A stretch of 64,000 bases of DNA from Escherichia phage vB_EcoS_MM-1. Numbering within the stretch: the stretch's first letter is position 1; every line of letters begins with the position of its first letter. Made by a program: the position numbers and the translations under genes. Below the pieces are notes generated by a model. The model made no database searches. It was not told the DNA's origin and saw nothing but the letters and a program-made list of their open reading frames with translations. Positions 1,223-52,018 of this stretch are shown here, piece after piece. The DNA is taken from the sequence record PV577657. One strand, written 5' to 3'.

Positions 1223-1429
1223 CTAAACTCCAGATTCTTCAGCTAAGTCTAGGCTAATAAGAGATATAGCCATAATTGCTGCTCCGTGTTCTCTTTCTCC
1301 TGTCTCTTTAGCTAGGGTTATAATATCAAGAAATTGCTTATGAAAGTCTGCAACCTCTTGAGTCATACCTGCCTCAGCAATCATGCCTTTAAGCATGAAA
1401 CGTTGTGCGGTAATTTCGGGATTAGCCAT
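1223..1429 (-). CDS. hypothetical protein
   Basis: 68-aa ORF, GGAGAAA RBS. Confidence 0.6.
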   Translation of the reverse strand: MANPEITAQRFMLKGMIAEAGMTQEVADFHKQFLDIITLAKETGEREHGAAIMAISLISLDLAEESGV

Positions 1430-1589
1430 GTTGTTTCTCCAGTTTCATGTTTAATAGTCTACAAATAAAATCAATGTCTTCATCTGTGCCTAGATCTCTA
1501 TCTTCAAGAGTTGCCTTGAAGTTTTTCGTCAATTCCATGAGGATAACTTCTCTAGAACGACGTGTTGGCGGAGGTGGATGTCTATACAT
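1422..1589 (-). CDS. small hypothetical protein (55 aa, PPPP motif)
   Basis: Hand-translated ORF MYRHPPPPTRRS... with AAGGA RBS; stop overlaps next start (ATGGCTAA); below ORF-track cutoff. Confidence 0.35.
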   Translation of the reverse strand: MYRHPPPPTRRSREVILMELTKNFKATLEDRDLGTDEDIDFICRLLNMKLEKQHG

Positions 1590-1604
1590 CTTATTTCCTT
1601 AAGT

Positions 1605-1681
1605 TGGTAGGGGTGGTGGGATTCGAACCCACAAAACCTGAATTTTAAGTCCAGTACCTATGCCAATTCGATTACACCCCC
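1605..1681 (-). tRNA. tRNA, anticodon tentatively UAA (Leu-like) but class I length
   Basis: Perfect T-arm GTGGG/TTCGAAT/CCCAC, G1-U72 acceptor, anticodon loop CUUAAAA; D-arm does not fold cleanly by hand. Confidence 0.5.
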
Positions 1682-1782
1682 ATGTAATCAGTTTATTAGT
1701 TGATACATATTATAGCCTAGTGAAAATCCTACTACTAGTCCCACAAACCAACCAATATAATAATCTTTTAGTTTCACAGGTA

Positions 1783-1968
1783 TTATCCTCGTTCAATATC
1801 TAGGGAAACACCGCAGTTAGGATTAATACCTGTACCGTTGCAATTTGAACAAATCCAGATATTGCAAAAAGTATCTCCTGCTTCTGCATCAGAACTTTCA
1901 CCAATTCCCCTACACTCAGGGCAGGCACATTCTTCTAGCTCTTGCTTGAGTTCTTGAAACTTGGACAT
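1783..1968 (-). CDS. small Cys-rich protein, putative zinc ribbon
   Basis: 61 aa with CxCPxC...CxxxxCxxC...C spacing. Confidence 0.6.
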   Translation of the reverse strand: MSKFQELKQELEECACPECRGIGESSDAEAGDTFCNIWICSNCNGTGINPNCGVSLDIERG

Positions 1969-2186
1969 ATAGTCTCCTTAGTCAATTACTTTTGAGGCTT
2001 CAAGGGAGTCGATATAGTATACGTTTTCTACCATAATCATATAATCTGCCACTTTATCCATAGCTTGGGCCTCAGAGGTAGCTCTGGCTAACCTATATCC
2101 TTTTTTATATTCATCCGGGTATTCTCTATCTTGAATAAATACAACATAAACTATGTATAATTCCACTTGTAATCCCCTAATTAAGT

Positions 2187-2264
2187 TGGTGGCTCCCCGA
2201 GGATTCGAACCTACGTACCTTCCGGTTATGAGCCGGGTGCTCATACCATATGAGCTTGAGAACC
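2187..2264 (-). tRNA. tRNA with CAU anticodon (Met or Ile2)
   Basis: D-arm GCTC-ATATGGTAT-GAGC, anticodon arm CCGG-CUCAUAA-CCGG, T-loop TTCGAAT, acceptor with two G-U pairs, encoded CCA. Confidence 0.6.
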
Positions 2265-2270
2265 AGAATT

Positions 2271-2359
2271 TGGCGGAAGAAGTGGGAATCGAACCCACAA
2301 GGCTATATTTCAAACCGACAGATTAGCAATCTGCTGCAATACCGTTATGCTATTCTTCC
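2271..2359 (-). tRNA. tRNA-Ser (anticodon GCU), class II
   Basis: Acceptor GGAAGAA/TTCTTCC, anticodon arm GCAGA-UUGCUAA-UCUGU, long variable arm, T-arm GTGGG/TTCGATT/CCCAC. Confidence 0.6.
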
Positions 2360-2380
2360 GAATTTATAAGATATATTATA

Positions 2381-2902
2381 TTAGAAATTTAGCTTCATAG
2401 CAAGAAAATTTTTCAAGTTTTCGGTAGACATCTCATCCACATCTACGGGAGAAACAAAGCCGTTTAATTTTCTAGCAAATTTTTCACCCGCAGGATCGTT
2501 GTCTCCGACAGCTACCAATTTAAAAGGTAATAATTTCAGTTGCTTTAATAACGCTTTTCCTGGAGAAGAACCTAACATTGCCAGGGCTGGATAACCAGCG
2601 TTATGTAGCGCAACTGCCTTAAATACAGATTCAGCGATCAATACTACTTTTTCATCTCCATTGAGAGTTTCTAGTCCCCATACACACTGGGTAGTAGAAT
2701 AAGTAAAATATTTAGCTTCAAAGGGACACTTACCATGACCTTTTGGAGCAGAAGGATTATACGTCTGATAGCCTCGCAACATCCCGGAGAAGTCATACAA
2801 CGGGACTGTTAGCCATCCTTCCGGACTTAACCAGCAATGATATTTATCTGTATCAAATCCTCTGGATAAGAGGTGCTGTGTTAGCTCATCAACATTCATA
2901 TT
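2381..2902 (-). CDS. Toprim-domain protein (stand-alone primase-like/nuclease-like fold)
   Basis: Conserved Glu (IAES) and GDNDPAG DxD motif; likely start MNVDELTQ after GAGAGGAA RBS. Confidence 0.6.
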   Translation of the reverse strand, partial: NMNVDELTQHLLSRGFDTDKYHCWLSPEGWLTVPLYDFSGMLRGYQTYNPSAPKGHGKCPFEAKYFTYSTTQCVWGLETLNGDEKVVLIAESVFKAVALHNAGYPALAMLGSSPGKALLKQLKLLPFKLVAVGDNDPAGEKFARKLNGFVSPVDVDEMSTENLKNFLAMKLNF

Positions 2903-2904
2903 TG

Positions 2905-2990
2905 GTTCCTCTCTCAAATTTATAGATATATTATACAGAGAATTTAGCATTCAAGCAATCAAATTTTTTAACTTTTTAGAGGAAAATCAT
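2905..2990 (-). promoter_or_regulatory. T5-type early promoter
   Basis: Minus-strand TTGCTT -17- TATAAT, then conserved ATCTATAAATTTGAGAGAGGAA. Confidence 0.6.
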
Positions 2991-3069
2991 AGGGCACTTA
3001 AGGGTAGCAGATAAGTGGGGAGGACCAAAATTTGTGACCCCACTAAAAATCCGGGGGCAATTTTTAAAG

Positions 3070-3110
3070 ACCCCTTGACATTTTCGCTGGGGTAGTGTAA
3101 AGTATATGTT
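3070..3110 (+). promoter_or_regulatory. sigma70-like promoter of counter-oriented island
   Basis: TTGACA at 3075-3080; AT-rich -10 candidates 17-23 bp downstream. Confidence 0.4.
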
Positions 3111-3165
3111 ATGGATGAGTGATCAAAGAGACACACATTTTCTATATACTAGGAGGTGTCAAAAT

Positions 3166-4155
3166 ATGACAGAAGAAGTAGCTAAGAGTCCTGAGACCGT
3201 CGCTAGCGTTGCAGCAGAACTGCACCGTCACGAGGAATCAGATAAGAAAAAGTGGGAGAAGGTCAGAGCCTACGAAGAAAAACATCGTGAACACGATGAT
3301 GAAGAAGAAGATGACGATGATGAACATTGTCATAAATATGGAAAACATAAAATGCAAGAACCAGTAAACGTATTCACTAGTGGCTTCCCTGGCCTACTGG
3401 GTGGTTACCCAGCAAACGCAGGTGCTTTCGGTGGTGAAGGTATGGGACTATTCGGAGCTATCCTAATCGGTGCTCTATTAACCGGCGGATTCGGTGGTTT
3501 CGGTGGATTCGGTGGACGTGGTGTAGTTGGTGAAGGTACCGCAGTTGATGCAGTACTTCAGAACCAAGATACCGCTAGTATTCTAGCAGCTATCAACACT
3601 ACTCGTACAGAGGCTAACCAGGGTACTGGAGCTGTTTTAAGCGCAGTTAACAATGGTTTTAGCCAGACAACCCAAAACCAGAGCCGTGATACTCAGTCTG
3701 TACTAACTACGATCTACGGTACAGATGCTAATCTGTCTAATCAGATCTGCCAGGAAACTCGCAACGTTATTCAGGGTCAGTTCGATCTTTCTCGCCAGAT
3801 TGATCAATCTTTCGCAGCTAACCAGATAGCTCGTGCACAAGATAAGTTTGATTCTGCACAGATCGCTTTCCAGCAGACTTTACAAACTAATAACCAGTTT
3901 GCCGCTGTTCAGGCTCAGATGTGTGCTAACCAGAACTCTCTGGAACGTCAGATCGCTGAATGTTGCTGTGAACTTCAGACTGCGATCGCTGGTGTAACTA
4001 CTGCGCGTATCCAGGATGAGTTAGACGCATGTCGCCTACGTGAAGCAATCGCTGCGGGTAGCGGTGCTAACGGTCAGGTAATTAATCAAATCGCTTTAAG
4101 TCTTGGTGCTATCACTCAGACTCTGGCTGGTCTGCAGGCTAAACTGCCGGCTTAA
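3166..4155 (+). CDS. acidic N-terminus / Gly-zipper hydrophobic segment / Q,N,T-rich coiled-coil protein
   Basis: AGGAGG RBS before MTEEV; D/E-rich N-terminus with HCH motif; GGFGGFGGFGG segment; host-optimal codons. Confidence 0.7.
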   Translation: MTEEVAKSPETVASVAAELHRHEESDKKKWEKVRAYEEKHREHDDEEEDDDDEHCHKYGKHKMQEPVNVFTSGFPGLLGGYPANAGAFGGEGMGLFGAILIGALLTGGFGGFGGFGGRGVVGEGTAVDAVLQNQDTASILAAINTTRTEANQGTGAVLSAVNNGFSQTTQNQSRDTQSVLTTIYGTDANLSNQICQETRNVIQGQFDLSRQIDQSFAANQIARAQDKFDSAQIAFQQTLQTNNQFAAVQAQMCANQNSLERQIAECCCELQTAIAGVTTARIQDELDACRLREAIAAGSGANGQVINQIALSLGAITQTLAGLQAKLPA

Positions 4156-4176
4156 TATTAAGGGGAGGAGCCCATT

Positions 4177-4593
4177 ATGAGTAAATATGGTTTTGTAAAT
4201 AACGGACTTAATCAAAGTATGGGCTCCCAGCAGCCCATTCCGGGTCTGGATAACCCCTACTTACAACAGTTGCAACAGCGTTTAGCAGAAGCGCAACAGA
4301 TGCAGCAACAACTCCAGCAAAACCCTGGAAGTGTGAGTCCTATGCAAATGATGCAGCAAATGAGCGGGCAGTCGCAAATGCCTCAACAAATGCAGCAACA
4401 GGTGCCTCAGCAGCAAGTTCAGCAACAAACCCAACAACCGCAGGTTTCTGCGGAAGGACAGGCAGTACTAGCCCTTTTCGAAGACTTCGCAAAGACAGAG
4501 GATGGGAAACAGCTTGTATCACTTATGGGTAAGTTTAATAGCTTCTGCCAAAGCCAAGTTGCAAAAGCTCAAAATGGGGGTAGTAACTCCTAA
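4177..4593 (+). CDS. glutamine-rich low-complexity protein
   Basis: 138 aa, long Q-rich tracts (QQMQQQLQQ..., QQVPQQQVQQQTQQPQ); strong RBS GGGGAGGAG. Confidence 0.7.
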   Translation: MSKYGFVNNGLNQSMGSQQPIPGLDNPYLQQLQQRLAEAQQMQQQLQQNPGSVSPMQMMQQMSGQSQMPQQMQQQVPQQQVQQQTQQPQVSAEGQAVLALFEDFAKTEDGKQLVSLMGKFNSFCQSQVAKAQNGGSNS

Positions 4594-4602
4594 GGAGGAA
4601 AT

Positions 4603-4797
4603 ATGTGTTGCAGAAAATCTGTTTCGTGCTGCCCAGTGCCTGTAGCACGTTGTTGCTCTCCAGCAATGTTTACGCAAATACCGGCGTTCAATCCCTTTGC
4701 CTTTAAGCCTACTCTTATCCTGCCCCCTAGAGTAGATTTTCAGTCAAGATTGGCCTCCCGTATGGGTGGTTGCTGTACACCGAGAGTATGGTTCTAA
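4603..4797 (+). CDS. small Cys-doublet-rich protein
   Basis: 64 aa with four CC doublets; RBS TAAGGAGG; directly precedes terminator. Confidence 0.55.
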   Translation: MCCRKSVSCCPVPVARCCSPAMFTQIPAFNPFAFKPTLILPPRVDFQSRLASRMGGCCTPRVWF

Positions 4798-4810
4798 ACC
4801 AAAAACAAAA

Positions 4811-4843
4811 GCCCCTGCCGAAAGGTAAGGGGCTTTTTCTTTT
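4811..4843 (+). terminator. rho-independent terminator
   Basis: GCCCCTGCC..GGTAAGGGGC hairpin followed by TTTTTCTTTT. Confidence 0.7.
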
Positions 4844-4850
4844 GCCTTAA

Positions 4851-4888
4851 ATACAGAAAAGCCCGCGCTCTCGTAGGAAACGCGGGCT
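4851..4888 (-). terminator. rho-independent terminator for SPFH gene
   Basis: GCCCGCG...CGCGGGC hairpin; T-run on minus strand. Confidence 0.65.
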
Positions 4889-4912
4889 TGGTTCGAAGAT
4901 TACGTGTAACTA

Positions 4913-5860
4913 TTACTTGTTACGCATATCCATGATCATTTGACCATCGTAGCCAGTACCTACCACAGTCTGAGGTACACCACCTTGATACTTCTGAGCA
5001 CGGATCATTTCAACTTCCAGTTGTTTCCAACGAATCATTTCAGGAGTAATGGTACGTTGCAATGCGGCGTTAGCTTCAGCTTCTTTCTTAGCTGCGTACA
5101 GTTTAGCATCTGCGTCACGTTCATTAGCAATAGCTTGGTTGTTACGAGCTTCACGATCTGCTTCTGCTTGTTTAACTTTTTGCTGTGCTTCCTGTTCAAC
5201 GCGAGCAAGTTCAGCTTTCGCAGCATTAACTTGCTCTTCACGAACTTTGGTATTCTGTACCTGTTCCATGATTACTGGCGGCAAGGTAATATCCTGAAGG
5301 AATACCTGCTTAACTGTGTAACCATATGGGCGCGCATACTCTTCAACTTCCTGTTGAATTGCAGTTTGCAATTGAGCCTGAATTTTAGCATCAAATAAAT
5401 CTTGTGCTTTAGGTACAGACTTACCAAACTCACGAATAGTAGACAGTAATTTTTCAGTTACATACTTGTCTAGTGCCTGATCCTGAGTACCTGCGTTAAT
5501 ACGGTTAATCGGTGCTTTAGAACCATCAAACTGCAACATAACAGTCAGGTCAACAGTGGATTTAAACTTATCCTGGCTAGGAACCTGAAGTTTATCTAAT
5601 TTTACAGCAATATCTTTTGTACTAAAAGTATCGAAAGATGCAAACGGGTTTACAAGATGGAAGCCCGGCAATACTGGATTAGGGTCTACTTTACCCAGGA
5701 ATGTTTGGGTTTTAACCGTACCATCAGAAACAATAGTATATGAATTAAAAGCTAGGATTAAACCTGCTAAACCAACTACAGCACCAATACCCCAACGTTT
5801 AATAGTACGAATTACTTTCTGCTCAGAAGTCAGTTCTTTCATATTTTTAGTAGCAAACAT
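4913..5860 (-). CDS. SPFH/band-7 (prohibitin/HflC-like) membrane protein
   Basis: N-terminal TM segment (WGIGAVVGLAGLILAF), SPFH-like core, C-terminal A/E/K/Q-rich coiled coil. Confidence 0.75.
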   Translation of the reverse strand: MFATKNMKELTSEQKVIRTIKRWGIGAVVGLAGLILAFNSYTIVSDGTVKTQTFLGKVDPNPVLPGFHLVNPFASFDTFSTKDIAVKLDKLQVPSQDKFKSTVDLTVMLQFDGSKAPINRINAGTQDQALDKYVTEKLLSTIREFGKSVPKAQDLFDAKIQAQLQTAIQQEVEEYARPYGYTVKQVFLQDITLPPVIMEQVQNTKVREEQVNAAKAELARVEQEAQQKVKQAEADREARNNQAIANERDADAKLYAAKKEAEANAALQRTITPEMIRWKQLEVEMIRAQKYQGGVPQTVVGTGYDGQMIMDMRNK

Positions 5861-48771: not shown

Positions 48772-48779
48772 TAGAAAAA

Positions 48780-48815
48780 CCCCGGTGGATTTTGTCCACC
48801 GGGGTTTCTTTGTAC
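48780..48815. terminator. bidirectional terminator at early/late boundary
   Basis: CCCCGGTGGA-TTTT-GTCCACCGGGG hairpin with T-runs on both strands. Confidence 0.75.
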
Positions 48816-48827
48816 TATGTATATGTA

Positions 48828-51596
48828 CTATGAGTTATCTGGCTTAATAAGCTCGCTAACAAGTTTCTTCAGTTCGGTTAATTCTTGCTCAAGTTTGTTA
48901 ACTTTATCAGCTTGATAACGAAATGCGCAAGCTAGGTCTGCCATAATGACGTTGTTATCAAGCGCTAATGTGTCATCTGCTTTGTCAACAACAATTTGAC
49001 GATCTACATATTCTTCACCTTCATCGTTAACACCTACAACATCTGCAAAAATATCACCTCCCGGGATTAATTTTACGTATTCGGGATCTATTTTTAGCAG
49101 GTCTTGGGCTATTAAGCCGAATCGTTGGATATCGCTACCGTTGTATTTAAACATCGTTGGCAACCACTGCATAACTCGGTCATAGCTTTCTTTTCCATCT
49201 GTATAAATTATATCGTGCTTTAAATCTCTGTCAGAGTTAGCGGCCTTTTGAAAAATGAAATTTCCACTTGATGACCATGTGGTTATATCGTTTGAGGCTG
49301 GCTGAAACTGGAAGTTACAGAAAAAATTACCATCACCACGAAGTCTTAGCGAGCAAAAAGGCCAAGCATTATTTCCCTGTGGGATAAGTCCCCAAGTTGC
49401 GCGAATTGGATAACCACCAGTGGATTGTGTACCCCATGAAAGGCCAGGTGCCCATCCACCATCATTGTTAGCAATAGTCTCACCCCAAACAAGAGCATTA
49501 CCCCAATAGTTAGGAGCATCCCATCCCATTTGTTGGGTTTTGCCAGTGTATTGAGCAGAATGCGTTCTGCCGTCAGGGTAAAACTTGTGCATATAGGACC
49601 GTATCCCTGCTTGATACAACTCTATTCCAAAAGATTCAACGTGTGTGTCGCCTCTTCTGATTAAACCAGCGATAGCGTAATCGTCATACCAGTTGTAACG
49701 ACTTACACCAGTCCATGTGTTTATTGGTGGATTCATGATTGAAAATAGTTGTGACGCATTGCGTTCATTCCCATCTGCATAAATACCAGCCCCAGGAGCT
49801 AAGGAAATACTTTTCGCTCCTGAAAAAGTACCATTTTCATTAAACTGATAATACTGTGATGCCCCATTATGAAATACGCCTATTGTATGCTTTCCTACGC
49901 CTACTTGAGTCTCAAAATAAGACTGAGAAGAACCAATATCTTCGCCTTGTGTATTCTTTAATTTTGAATGATATATACCTGCATTTGCAGTAGTTGCATT
50001 TTCCGTTTCGTTTTCAACATTAAGACTTAGGAACTTTGGTGCATGTTTCTCACCAAGCCCTATATTATTTCTGATACCATTCGCATCCTTAGCACCTGTA
50101 CCACCAAATTGAATACCTAGTGGTAGCCATTGATTGGTTGTAGCATCATAAACGCCCCAATGATCCCCACCATCTGGAATGGTTAGATACTTGTTTTTAT
50201 TTGGAGAATATAAAATTGTTTCACCAGAATTCTGAAACAGCCTATCAACTCCTAAATTATATCTAGCACCTTCAGGAGTATCTGCTCCTGTACCACCAGC
50301 CGCAGTTGATAATGGAAGAGTTTCCCATGATATTCCATCACCTTTTGTATCTCTCTGAAGTACAATAAGACCATCATCTCTAATAACAAATCTATATAAT
50401 CTATTATGTGAATATAGAAAAGTATGAACCCCATCTTGTACAAGTGAGTCTATAAGGAGTGTCTGACGAGAAGCATTGATATTTGACAGATCTGAGAGAT
50501 TATTTTCTTTTAGTAACGATTTACTAATGATACCTTCAGCTTTTCCAGCAGCTACTTCCGCACGCCCAGCGTCTGTAGATGCACTTTGTGCGCTACCAGC
50601 AGCATTGCTAGCTTGTTGTCCTGCTTCGGTAGCGCTATTACTTGCTTGTGCAGCCGAGGCTGCAGCAGCATCTTTTAGCACTGTAGTTTCCGTTACCGCA
50701 CTATCCTTAATACCTTGTGTGTCTGTTTTTAATTGCTCAACATCAGATTTTAAAGCCGTTGTTTCACCTATAGTGCTGTCTTTAATTAGTTGAGTATCTG
50801 TTTTTAATTGCTCAACATCTGATTTTAAGCCTTGAATAGTAGTTACTGATTGGTTAGCTGAGGCTGCGGAATGGGCTGCATTAGTCTCACTAGTTTTTGC
50901 ATTGGTTTCACTAGTTTTTGCATTGGCTTCACTAGCTTTTGCATTAGTTTCCGAGGTTTTTGCAGCGGATGCTGATGCGGCGGCTTGTGCAGAGAATATT
51001 TCTGCCCCATCTCTATAGCCTTTAGAATCCGAAGCAGAAGCAGCAGCATTAGTTTCACTAGCCTTTGCCTTATCTTCACTAGTCTTTGCTGCAATAGCAG
51101 AAGCAGCAGCATTAGTTTCACTAGCCTTTGCCTTATCTTCGCTAGCCTTTGCATTAGTCTCACTAGTTTTTGCGTTAGTCTCACTAGTTTTTGCATTAGT
51201 TTCACTAGCCTTTGCCTTATCTTCGCTAGTTTTAGCATTAGTCTCAGATATTTTAGCTGCAGCTGCTGATTCCTCCGATTTAGTAGCTGATGCAGCAGAT
51301 TGAGTAGCAGATGTAGCGGACTGAGTGGCAGAGGCTTCAGAAGCTCCAGCAGAAATAGCAGCTTCCTGTTCAGAGTTCTTAGCATTAAGCTCCGAAGTTT
51401 TAGCCGCTATCTCAGAATCTTTTGCAGCTGCAGCAGACTTAGCTGCAGCCTCAATAGAAGATACTAACTCACTTGCAGTAATAGAGCTAATAGAATTACC
51501 TAGAGTTACTGTATATCTAGGAAACTTACTAGCAGTAGCTTTAGTATCATCAATATTTAATATTTGTTGTACAATAATTTTAGTAGTTACTGCCAT
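48828..51596 (-). CDS. L-shaped tail fibre protein with phage-fibre repeats and C-terminal chaperone-like domain
   Basis: SETNAKT heptad repeats; C-terminus resembles intramolecular chaperone/S74 auto-cleaving domain; 922 aa. Confidence 0.8.
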   Translation of the reverse strand: MAVTTKIIVQQILNIDDTKATASKFPRYTVTLGNSISSITASELVSSIEAAAKSAAAAKDSEIAAKTSELNAKNSEQEAAISAGASEASATQSATSATQSAASATKSEESAAAAKISETNAKTSEDKAKASETNAKTSETNAKTSETNAKASEDKAKASETNAAASAIAAKTSEDKAKASETNAAASASDSKGYRDGAEIFSAQAAASASAAKTSETNAKASEANAKTSETNAKTSETNAAHSAASANQSVTTIQGLKSDVEQLKTDTQLIKDSTIGETTALKSDVEQLKTDTQGIKDSAVTETTVLKDAAAASAAQASNSATEAGQQASNAAGSAQSASTDAGRAEVAAGKAEGIISKSLLKENNLSDLSNINASRQTLLIDSLVQDGVHTFLYSHNRLYRFVIRDDGLIVLQRDTKGDGISWETLPLSTAAGGTGADTPEGARYNLGVDRLFQNSGETILYSPNKNKYLTIPDGGDHWGVYDATTNQWLPLGIQFGGTGAKDANGIRNNIGLGEKHAPKFLSLNVENETENATTANAGIYHSKLKNTQGEDIGSSQSYFETQVGVGKHTIGVFHNGASQYYQFNENGTFSGAKSISLAPGAGIYADGNERNASQLFSIMNPPINTWTGVSRYNWYDDYAIAGLIRRGDTHVESFGIELYQAGIRSYMHKFYPDGRTHSAQYTGKTQQMGWDAPNYWGNALVWGETIANNDGGWAPGLSWGTQSTGGYPIRATWGLIPQGNNAWPFCSLRLRGDGNFFCNFQFQPASNDITTWSSSGNFIFQKAANSDRDLKHDIIYTDGKESYDRVMQWLPTMFKYNGSDIQRFGLIAQDLLKIDPEYVKLIPGGDIFADVVGVNDEGEEYVDRQIVVDKADDTLALDNNVIMADLACAFRYQADKVNKLEQELTELKKLVSELIKPDNS
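50870..51300 (-). repeat. tandem ~21-bp repeat array inside tail-fibre gene
   Basis: Reiterated TTTTGCATTAGT(C/T)TCACTAG units on + strand. Confidence 0.8.
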
Positions 51597-52018
51597 TATT
51601 TAGTTACCCCATCACTGATAAATACTTTACCCTCCATTATACGAAAGGAGCTAATTGCAGATCCTATAACATCTCTAGTCATAATTATATCATAGTATCC
51701 TGCGAATCGCTGACGAGGGTTATATTTATCTCTATCTTTAGATGCTCTAGCCCCTATATTTTCCACAGATTCTACTGGCAAACTTATAGCTACAGCCCCT
51801 TGAGCAGCATCAATAATATTAGTAGTAAAGGATGCTAATATCTCCGCATTCTCATCTAGGCTATTTTTTATAGTACCCCTTAGAGAATACCCGGTTAAGT
51901 TAACGGGGGTATTTGTAGGTGGATAAGTACTATCATCAACATCTAAGAACCGCATCATTAAACCATATGGTACTTTCTCATCTATTACTAAATCTATAAC
52001 TCTATTTTCAGTACTCAT
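51596..52018 (-). CDS. tail collar-like protein (p132-like)
   Basis: 140-aa ORF between fibre and baseplate genes. Confidence 0.6.

Follow-up and report, generated by a model that had tools for sequence, protein, structure and literature searches.

A T5-like coliphage has an array of 21 bp repeats within the coding sequence of its side tail-fibre gene. This raises the question of whether the array is a device that changes fibre length and thereby host range, or whether it is the coding form of a repetitive protein fold. The gene lies in a 64 000 nt stretch of the Escherichia phage vB_EcoS_MM-1 genome (PV577657), termed the window. The likely answer is that the gene product is the lateral fibre of a T5-like phage, with an N-terminal anchor, a coiled-coil shaft of heptads, swapped distal modules and an S74 chaperone, and that the array has a near-constant length.

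Identity and genomic setting of the gene

The open reading frame at 48828–51596 is the usual side tail-fibre gene of a coliphage related to T5 (Tequintavirus), and its annotation is not new. Its product is 100% identical to a protein of Escherichia phage vB_EcoS_MM-2 annotated as 'tail fiber protein', and it matches PHROG tail-fibre families with E=7e-244. The gene occupies the T5 ltf slot in the tail module, between a convergent dut-side terminator and ltfC(p132)-pb4, and Pfam finds pb4 domains and LtfC (PF23926) in its neighbours. In T5, a terminator is annotated at the equivalent ltf/dut-side site as well. A sequence-only reading of this DNA had called the open reading frame a tail-fibre gene, and the T5 ltf position, the ltfC/p132 and pb4 neighbours and N-terminal homology to T5 pb1 and DT57C LtfA bear this out. 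The features of the locus are listed in Table 1.

Table 1. Features of the ltf locus, in window coordinates (AF2, AlphaFold2 model; TRF, Tandem Repeats Finder)
Feature	Residues	Position	Strand	Basis
Bidirectional intrinsic terminator between ltf and convergent dut-side genes		48775–48809	.	14–15-pair stem, both strands
ltf gene, L-shaped (lateral) tail fibre protein, pb1/LtfA homologue	922 aa	48828–51596	-	Exact ORF; MM-2 identity; PHROG; gene order
Peptidase_S74 intramolecular chaperone	788–922	48831–49235	-	Pfam PF13884; dyad S788/K793; predicted self-cleavage between N787 and S788
Distal beta-rich domain, presumed receptor-binding	521–787	49236–50036	-	AF2 pLDDT 80–93; common to other phage groups
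Pair of small beta modules, with a GGTGA...ARxNLG motif after each	360–520	50037–50519	-	AF2 secondary structure
Second long alpha-helix of shaft (predicted)	196–359	50520–51011	-	AF2 helix, pLDDT up to 95
75 bp/25 aa repeat, two copies	257–306	50679–50828	-	7+7+11 residues: LKSDVEQ LKTDTQx IKDSxxxETTx
21 bp repeat array B, four AKxSExN units	212–239	50880–50963	-	TRF 50877–50964, period 21, 4.2 copies
Predicted helix break or hinge (ASDSKGYR)	188–195	51012–51035	-	AF2 non-helical, pLDDT about 48–53; segment missing in T5 pb1
First long alpha-helix of shaft (predicted)	41–187	51036–51476	-	AF2 helix; heptad statistics; Ala(a)/Ser(d) core
21 bp repeat array A	114–183	51048–51257	-	Ten units: nine strict AKxSExx, one degenerate (aa 163); TRF rows 51033–51276
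N-terminal anchor, predicted to insert into LtfC/p132 collar	1–40	51477–51596	-	Homology to T5 pb1/DT57C LtfA; AF2 non-helical, low pLDDT
ltfC/p132 collar gene	140 aa	51596–52018	-	Pfam PF23926 LtfC E=2.7e-14; one-base overlap with ltf (TAATG)

Alternative-frame open reading frames that run through the array (such as 50843–51385 on the minus strand, 180 aa, and 50985–51269 on the plus strand) were considered and rejected as repeat artefacts. The SA001 annotation carries a spurious 180 aa open reading frame in an alternative frame. Searches of the literature yielded no paper on phage MM-2 or on the heptads of Tequintavirus fibres.

T5 pb1 (Ltf, 1396 aa) shares with the ltf product its genomic slot, its neighbours, a homologous anchor and Ala/Ser heptad region, and a C-terminal Peptidase_S74 chaperone with the motif SDxxLKxD at the cleavage site. 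Residues 1–227 of the ltf product align with pb1 residues 1–205 at 52% identity, and all sequence distal to this stretch is non-homologous. The two proteins differ in that the ltf product is 474 aa shorter between about residue 230 and the chaperone, and in that pb1 has fewer heptads and does not have the 14-residue helix break; their chaperones have diverged beyond what BLASTP can align. The shorter length of the fibre (922 versus 1396 aa) had been taken as consistent with a change in repeat number. It is not a repeat effect, because homology is limited to the N-terminal ∼230 residues, and there it is T5 that is shorter.

The repeat array at the DNA and protein levels

At the DNA level, Tandem Repeats Finder places 21 bp arrays at 50877–50964 and 51046–51240, with super-periods of 42, 63 and 84 bp over 51033–51276. 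The unit GCAAAGGCTAGTGAAACTAAT has seven matches at three or fewer mismatches, all of them within the array, versus 0.01 expected. Exact direct repeats reach 45 bp in length, whereas in 300 trials with synonymous codons randomised for this peptide the longest repeat averages 17.7 and never exceeds 33. Array A contains a near-perfect 63 bp duplication, and the DNA of the units at residues 128, 156 and 177 is identical. The 21 bp tandem repeats recognized from the sequence are therefore real, with arrays and repeat statistics above chance; the units then given as SETNAKT/SEDKAKA are the same repeat in a shifted frame, and their placement in the N-terminal third is fair (array residues 51–253, full helical region 41–359). 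Long runs of identical units are not found. At most three 21 bp units are identical and these are non-adjacent, and units agree pairwise at a mean identity of 0.69, hardly more than the 0.655 that the peptide alone would give.

At the amino acid level, one seven-residue register continues unbroken over residues 51–253, or 29 heptads, with 16 strict units of the form AK[TA/x]SExx and 11 degenerate ones of the AAxSAxx type. The register is kept across a 14-residue break, SKGYRDGAEIFSAQ, at residues 191–204. In the regular heptads, position 1 is Ala in 23 of 27 and Ser in the other 4, and position 4 is Ser in all 27. Beyond the array, the register extends into I254/L257/V261/L264. As part of the reading favoured here as likely, the 21 bp repeats would be the coding form of the shaft heptads, with the Ala of position 1 as 'a' and the Ser of position 4 as 'd'.

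Anchor and shaft

The solved structure of DT57C LtfA (PDB 8HQZ chain d, 1076 aa) provides the closest comparison for the proximal part of the fibre. The N-terminus of the ltf product matches this chain with E=1.7e-34. In DT57C, the N-terminal residues of LtfA are beta-strands inside the LtfC ring, and from T40 onwards LtfA is helical and packs as a three-helix coiled coil (PMC10713586). The two proteins are alike in a helix that starts at about residue 40–41, in attachment through the LtfC collar and in a weak chaperone similarity. They differ in their middle and distal domains, which show no relationship, and in that DT57C possesses an additional, branching fibre protein, LtfB; no ltfB gene adjoins ltf in the window. 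The three-helix bundle is seen in the solved structure of LtfA, whereas the helix of the ltf product is predicted by AF2. Both AF2 models are monomers (mean pLDDT 76.5 and 70.6), and the chaperone part is modelled poorly.

By analogy, residues 1–40 would anchor a trimer in the LtfC/p132 collar, and residues 41–359 probably form a long alpha-helical coiled coil that is three-stranded; the two small modules and the beta-rich distal domain would then follow. A point against the coiled-coil reading is the core itself, as classical coiled coils do not typically have Ala and Ser there. Loss of one residue from the shaft of DT57C LtfA is enough to abolish adsorption (PMC4728585).

Array length among relatives

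The sequence-only reading had proposed that slippage and unequal recombination would give length-variable fibres and thereby tune host range. A comparison of fibre lengths in relatives bears directly on this. In about 36 of 45 distinct relatives there is no net indel over gene nt 1–780 or 1–698, as judged from BLAST coordinates, a tally that would miss compensating indels. Length is thus steady in about 80% of relatives despite 15–20% DNA divergence. Five of the 45 differ by one or two heptads: VEc33 has gained 7 aa, Lindwurm and T5_ev219 have each lost 7 aa, and PK7 and S.Ent 1-35-3 each have two separate 7 aa deletions, that is, −14 aa. Indels inside the array are whole heptads in every case; a separate insertion of 3 aa is found at the helix break. 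By calculation from the standard helix rise, changes of one or two heptads amount to about 1–2 nm in a helix of about 45 heptad-lengths. As a query for homologues, the N-terminal 385 aa drew mainly Ala/Ser/Thr-rich fibres and adhesins of similar composition; this search was set aside as a survey of T5-like fibres, and BLAST coordinates and fetched loci were used in its place.

One contig that is 99.87% identical over 8.6 kb shows a larger change, a clean 147 bp deletion (seven heptads, −49 aa) bounded by a 32 bp exact repeat. The deletion may be an assembly artefact caused by repeat collapse, since it comes from a short-read assembly (reads ERR11439706) and the 32-mer at its edge is present three times in the array. 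If real, it means that larger length changes are tolerated than the favoured reading assumes, and that large in-frame steps also arise quickly.

These data can be set against the proposal of a hypervariable tract, in which slippage or unequal recombination often changes the number of units and fibre length tunes host range. Exact direct repeats of 21–45 bp, the whole-unit differences in the five relatives and the 147 bp deletion all speak for it. On the other hand, the units are imperfect, confirmed changes are rare and just one or two heptads, no link to host is visible, and the host range of T5-like phages has been switched experimentally via the distal LtfA region (PMC4728585). We regard the proposal as very unlikely. 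Of the original claim, the whole-unit differences between relatives stand; length change appears to be neither frequent nor large, and host-range tuning by length finds no support, as array length is mostly unchanged and fibres differ by exchanged distal modules. A diversity-generating or phase-variable mechanism was also considered, and was rejected because the repeats are not perfect, keep the reading frame and are conserved in length.

Between the MM-2 and OSYSP lineages, no part of the gene has diverged further than the array (78–81% identity versus 85–97%), although it is of equal length in both. In the array core, paralogous units within a genome are identical at 21 of 21 positions, whereas positional orthologues in the two lineages match at 13–19 of 21, and the unit pattern differs by lineage. 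Perhaps the array is length-constrained but internally fluid, with lineage-specific homogenization of units (concerted evolution), a heptad number that is almost fixed and survival of whole-heptad changes only; this is a tentative suggestion that we hold to be rather doubtful. As to origin, the likely reading of a near-constant heptad shaft would have the array grow by duplication, the latest being the 63 bp block of three heptads, and its units turn over by exchange within the array; whole heptads would be gained or lost only occasionally, and the total length would stay nearly constant.

The 75 bp/25 aa repeat is more variable in copy number among relatives than the 21 bp array. One copy is found in YJin-2024a and P0127, two are found here, and at least three in OSYSP and S.Ent 1-35-3.

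Distal modules and module exchange

Most of the difference between related fibres consists of swapped outer parts, and changes in repeat number are only small. The MM-2 fibre is a mosaic even when set beside its nearest relatives: identity to T5_ev212 is 100% over gene nt 1–600 and 79–97% thereafter. The distal two-thirds of the protein is a module that unrelated siphophages also carry. The distal domain is 64–92% identical to fibres of 59–60 kb siphophages, Dhillonvirus and E. coli prophages, and from about residue 503 the identity to the E. coli prophage fibres is 58–80%.

Fibres of the SD04 type (827 aa; 59–60 kb siphophages, record 'Aeromonas phage SD04') align by BLASTP from about residue 198 with 81–84% identity overall and are nearly identical to the ltf product from about residue 250; over residues 359–922, identity to 827 aa fibres with a lambda-type N-terminus on 59–60 kb contigs is 79–92%. 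Dhillonvirus fibres align by BLASTP from about residue 250 at about 67–86% identity (67–68% for the 731–736 aa fibres, as in slyngel and atuna). Their nucleotide similarity begins near residue 497, with DNA matches from gene nt 1491. Both groups have the S74 chaperone in the shared part. They differ from the ltf product in their N-terminal anchors, which are not of the T5 type (PF08400, lambda Stf type, in SD04-type fibres), in not having the long 21 bp array and in carrying the 25 aa repeat as a single copy.

Might the repeat region itself be a recombination adapter, in which shared heptad DNA joins the T5-specific anchor to mobile receptor-binding modules? T5 pb1 homology stops directly after array B, the MM-2 fibre is mosaic against T5_ev212 past gene nt 600, and heptads of the SETNAK type occur in lambda-type (PF08400) and T7-type (PF03906) fibres and in YadA-like adhesins. 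However, these heptad matches are mostly compositional, the sharing of heptads between phage families is seen at the protein level, and most similarity boundaries are distal to the 21 bp array, at gene nt 845, 924, 995–998, 1119 and 1491. We regard an adapter role as very unlikely.

The distal domain presumably binds surface polysaccharide; a fibre of the pb1/LtfA type would be expected to bind O-antigen or LPS sugars reversibly and so to speed adsorption. In DT57C, distal LtfA regions were shown experimentally to set and switch host range (PMC4728585). Searches for structural neighbours of the distal domain gave none. A PDB search with the profile of one alignment (A2) returned mostly N-terminal parts of homologues outside the T5 group (Klebsiella phage depolymerases), which are irrelevant to the ltf product.

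The C-terminal chaperone

The suggestion that the C-terminus is an intramolecular chaperone domain is confirmed by a PF13884 match above cut-off (E=3.7e-8, 34.0 bits versus a cut-off of 22), in which residues 788–842 cover profile positions 1–58 and S788 aligns with the catalytic S1264 of T5 pb1, both at profile position 1. A Lys follows the Ser by five residues at the start of the domain (S788/K793 in NSDRDLKHD; the T5 equivalent is TSDARLKND). The C-terminus of T5 pb1 gave no BLASTP match to the chaperone, and the equivalence is set through the shared Pfam profile. Among 51 homologues, S430, D431 and K435 (numbering of the query segment) are invariant, and PF13884 is present in all 120 of the distal-module homologues among the matches listed. 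The domain is at the extreme C-terminus, and the model shows a terminal helix at residues 881–917.

The mechanism of S74 cleavage in T5 has been described (PMC4690869). As S788/K793 are at the model positions of T5 S1264/K1269, self-cleavage is predicted between N787 and S788. The chaperone would presumably fold the trimer and then cut itself off at this site, which would leave a mature chain of 82.7 kDa (calculated). Endosialidase-type chaperones (Peptidase_S74; K1F endosialidase) resemble the domain in Pfam assignment, Ser/Lys spacing, extreme C-terminal position and terminal helix, but the passenger here is neither a sialidase nor a recognizable beta-helix tailspike.

Implications

The biology of this fibre is already known, and the locus opens no new biological question. 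Its value is practical, for annotation and phage engineering, and the borders are those of anchor (1–40), shaft (41–359), distal part (∼360–787) and chaperone (788–922). The natural exchange points at residues 282–373 and at about 497 are sensible junctions for swaps of receptor-binding modules between T5-like and other siphophages. There is also a warning, as the repeat misleads both short-read assemblies and gene callers, as in the possible 147 bp collapse and the SA001 open reading frame. If the array should prove to be internally fluid at constrained length, T5-like fibres would provide a natural system for the effects of shaft length and coiled-coil register on adsorption.

A lateral tail fibre gene

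Over the window region, sequence identity to Escherichia phage vB_EcoS_MM-2 (Tequintavirus, Demerecviridae) is 100%. Upstream of ltf and on the same strand lie the collar gene ltfC/p132 (140 aa; PF23926, Pfam) and the gene of the straight-fibre protein pb4 (690 aa), which carries all four PB4 Pfam domains. The ltfC/p132 stop and the ltf start overlap by one base (TAATG, window 51594-51598), and this arrangement suggests that translation of the collar and fibre proteins is coupled. Downstream, a strong terminator sits between ltf and the convergent dut and flap-endonuclease genes. Terminator and gene order are annotated in T5 exactly as here, which makes this the gene for the L-shaped (lateral) tail fibre, equivalent to T5 ltf/pb1. 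The sequence-only reading had called it a tail-fibre gene, and the MM-2 annotation, the LtfC/pb4 neighbours, the T5 gene order and homology to pb1 all agree. It is already known and annotated, and its family is well studied.

Features of the fibre gene and its surroundings
Feature	Window position	Strand	Description
ltf	48828-51596	minus	922 aa; labelled 'tail fiber protein' in the MM-2 record
Bidirectional terminator	48775-48809	both	14-15 bp GC-rich hairpin, T-runs on both strands
25-aa repeat, two copies	50679-50828 (aa 257-306)		7+7+11 residues, LKSDVEQ-LKTDTQx-IKDSxxxETTx
Predicted helix break	51012-51035 (aa 188-195)		Break predicted by AF2; falls in a conserved SKGYRDGAE-type segment

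In the T5 reference (NC_005859, 8056-8480) the p132/LtfC region is annotated as two short ORFs, T5.135 and T5.136, whereas MM-2 and all fetched relatives have one 140-aa gene. According to the DT57C paper, the T5 sequence contains a frameshift error that produces the split. In Salmonella phage vB_SalS_SA001 (MN445182, locus 1403-4215), a 44-bp stretch (gene nt 55-98) is duplicated in tandem, which shifts the ltf frame, and the record cuts ltf into three CDS. One of them, a 180-aa 'hypothetical protein', is no more than an alternative frame across the heptad array. The duplication reflects either a fibreless laboratory variant or a sequencing/assembly error.

Heptad repeats of the proximal shaft

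The 21-bp tandem repeats and their 7-aa units, proposed from the sequence, were confirmed. Tandem Repeats Finder reports period-21 arrays at 50877-50964 and 51046-51240, with super-periods of 42, 63 and 84 bp across 51033-51276. When the protein is written in sevens, a single register is kept through aa 51-253 (29 heptads), in which 16 units are strict (AKxSExx) and 11 are of a degenerate AAxSAxx type; the register survives a 14-residue break at aa 191-204. Of the 27 regular heptads, 23 have Ala and four have Ser at the first position, and all 27 have Ser at the fourth. Right after the array these positions turn into I254, L257, V261 and L264, and positions 1 and 4 are thus the a/d core of a predicted coiled coil.

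At the DNA level, the commonest 21-bp unit has seven matches at ≤3 mismatches (0.01 expected), all within the array. Exact direct repeats reach 45 bp; in 300 synonymous randomisations the longest repeat averaged 17.7 and never exceeded 33. The repetition exceeds chance and also goes further than the peptide would require. Units are on average 0.69 identical to one another, only a little more than expected from synonymous randomisation (0.655 +/- 0.013), and this marks the array as an old repeat in which a few duplications are recent, among them that of a three-heptad block of 63 bp.

Residues 1-227 are 52% identical to T5 pb1, and the N-terminus matches DT57C LtfA in PDB 8HQZ (E=1.7e-34). Low-complexity matches predominated in the N-terminal homologue search. 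Cryo-EM of DT57C shows the first ~40 LtfA residues as strands woven into the LtfC dodecamer, and a long helix from T40 that forms a three-helix coiled coil directed away from the tail (PMC10713586); the T5 p132 collar holds densities for about 50 N-terminal pb1 residues (PMC10038345). An AF2 monomer model of aa 1-360 (mean pLDDT 76.5) has residues 1-40 disordered and long helices at 41-187 and 196-359, with a low-confidence break between them. These helices, together with the pb1/LtfA homology, identify the array as the coding sequence of the proximal shaft, which by homology would be trimeric. The predicted break may be a hinge in the fibre. T5 pb1 lacks the SKGYRDGAE-type segment, and some relatives carry a 3-residue insertion directly beside the break. 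Literature searches for MM-2 and for analyses of heptads in Tequintavirus fibres gave no paper.

Near-constant length and internal turnover

The array had been expected to change length by slippage or unequal recombination. The idea has weak support, in that rare whole-heptad changes occur among relatives. About 45 distinct Tequintavirus genomes (80-100% identity) were tallied for length by their BLAST coordinates, covering gene nt 1-780 or 1-698, and about 36 of them show no net change. By these coordinates the proximal gene differs by -42 nt in PK7, by -21 nt in Lindwurm and S.Ent 1-35-3, and by +9 nt, a 3-residue insertion at the helix break, in five phages. When the proteins of fetched loci are aligned, S.Ent 1-35-3 shows a second -7 aa gap and T5_ev219 a gap of -7 aa; the +21 nt of VEc33 is likewise seen at the protein level, its extra unit lying just past the BLAST-aligned stretch. 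All indels inside the array are whole heptads in the protein alignment, which fits a register constraint. Deleting one shaft residue, A198, abolishes adsorption in DT57C (PMC4728585).

In a comparison of five full-length orthologues, VEc33 is longer by exactly one AKTSETN unit; the remaining length differences all fall in the 25-aa/11-aa repeat and none in the 21-bp array. The 25-aa repeat is the more variable in copy number, with one copy in YJin-2024a and in 59-kb phage fibres, two in the window and at least three in OSYSP and S.Ent 1-35-3.

The units themselves do turn over. In MM-2, units 128, 156 and 177 are the same in DNA, as are 142 and 233; the identical sets in OSYSP differ (128=142, 135=149, 156=177). 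Units at the same place in the two lineages share only 13-19 of their 21 nucleotides, and the array, though equally long in both, has diverged more than any other part of the gene (78-81% vs 85-97%). Such a pattern reads as concerted evolution under length constraint.

One Logan contig assembled from short reads, ERR11439706_286, matches the window at 99.87% identity across 8.6 kb (ltf at 3001-5622) and lacks exactly 147 bp (seven heptads; window 51077-51223) in a single clean deletion flanked by a 32-bp exact repeat, GAAGATAAGGCAAAGGCTAGTGAAACTAATGC. A clean seven-heptad loss at such a repeat is the outcome that unequal recombination would give. Short-read repeat collapse is equally plausible, as the 32-mer occurs three times in the MM-2 array. 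Logan assemblies use k = 31.

C-terminal chaperone domain

The suggestion of a C-terminal intramolecular chaperone is supported. Residues 788-842 match Pfam Peptidase_S74 (34 bits, cut-off 22), as does T5 pb1, and S788 occupies profile position 1, the place of the catalytic S1264 of T5. The local motifs agree (TSDARLKND in pb1, NSDRDLKHD here), and this alignment gives a Ser/Lys dyad, S788/K793, invariant among 51 homologues. In T5 pb1, S1264 and K1269 self-cleave between T1263 and S1264 once the trimer has folded, and chaperone removal unmasks receptor binding (PMC4690869). Cleavage between N787 and S788, predicted by analogy, would release a chaperone of 15.4 kDa and leave a mature chain of 82.7 kDa (computed masses).

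Distal modules and host range

Repeat-number change does not explain why the fibre is shorter than pb1. In the homologous stretch it is T5 that is shorter (pb1 1-205 against 1-227 here), and pb1 lacks three shaft segments present in the window fibre. Homology ends after the second heptad array, and the 474-aa difference lies entirely within non-homologous distal parts.

The distal part is a mobile module. Residues 359-922 are 79-92% identical to 827-aa fibres with a lambda-Stf-type N-terminus from 59-60 kb siphophage contigs (BLASTP alignment from about aa 198, near-identity from about aa 250). With Dhillonvirus fibres, the BLASTP alignment begins at about aa 250 (about 67-86% identity) and nucleotide-level similarity near aa 497; identity to E. 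coli prophage fibres is 58-80% from about aa 503. Other T5-like phages share the proximal part only, up to gene nt 924-1119. The AF2 model and structure searches gave no fold assignment for the distal domain. The distal fibre modules in MG065643 and others ('Campylobacter phage', about 50 kb), and likewise in MH230177 ('Aeromonas phage SD04'), are 87-90% identical in DNA to the fibre of this E. coli/Salmonella phage; their host labels look doubtful, and the genome sizes are typical of coliphage groups.

Similarity boundaries are grouped at aa 282-373 and about 497, which correspond to the distal coiled-coil end and the GGTGA motif, not to the 21-bp array. These precise module boundaries and concerted evolution at constant length are the only mildly new points. 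Host-range tuning by fibre length, as had been proposed, is unsupported. In DT57C and DT571/2, host range is switched by swapping the distal LtfA region (PMC4728585), so that the evidence favours exchange of modules as the way in which host range changes.
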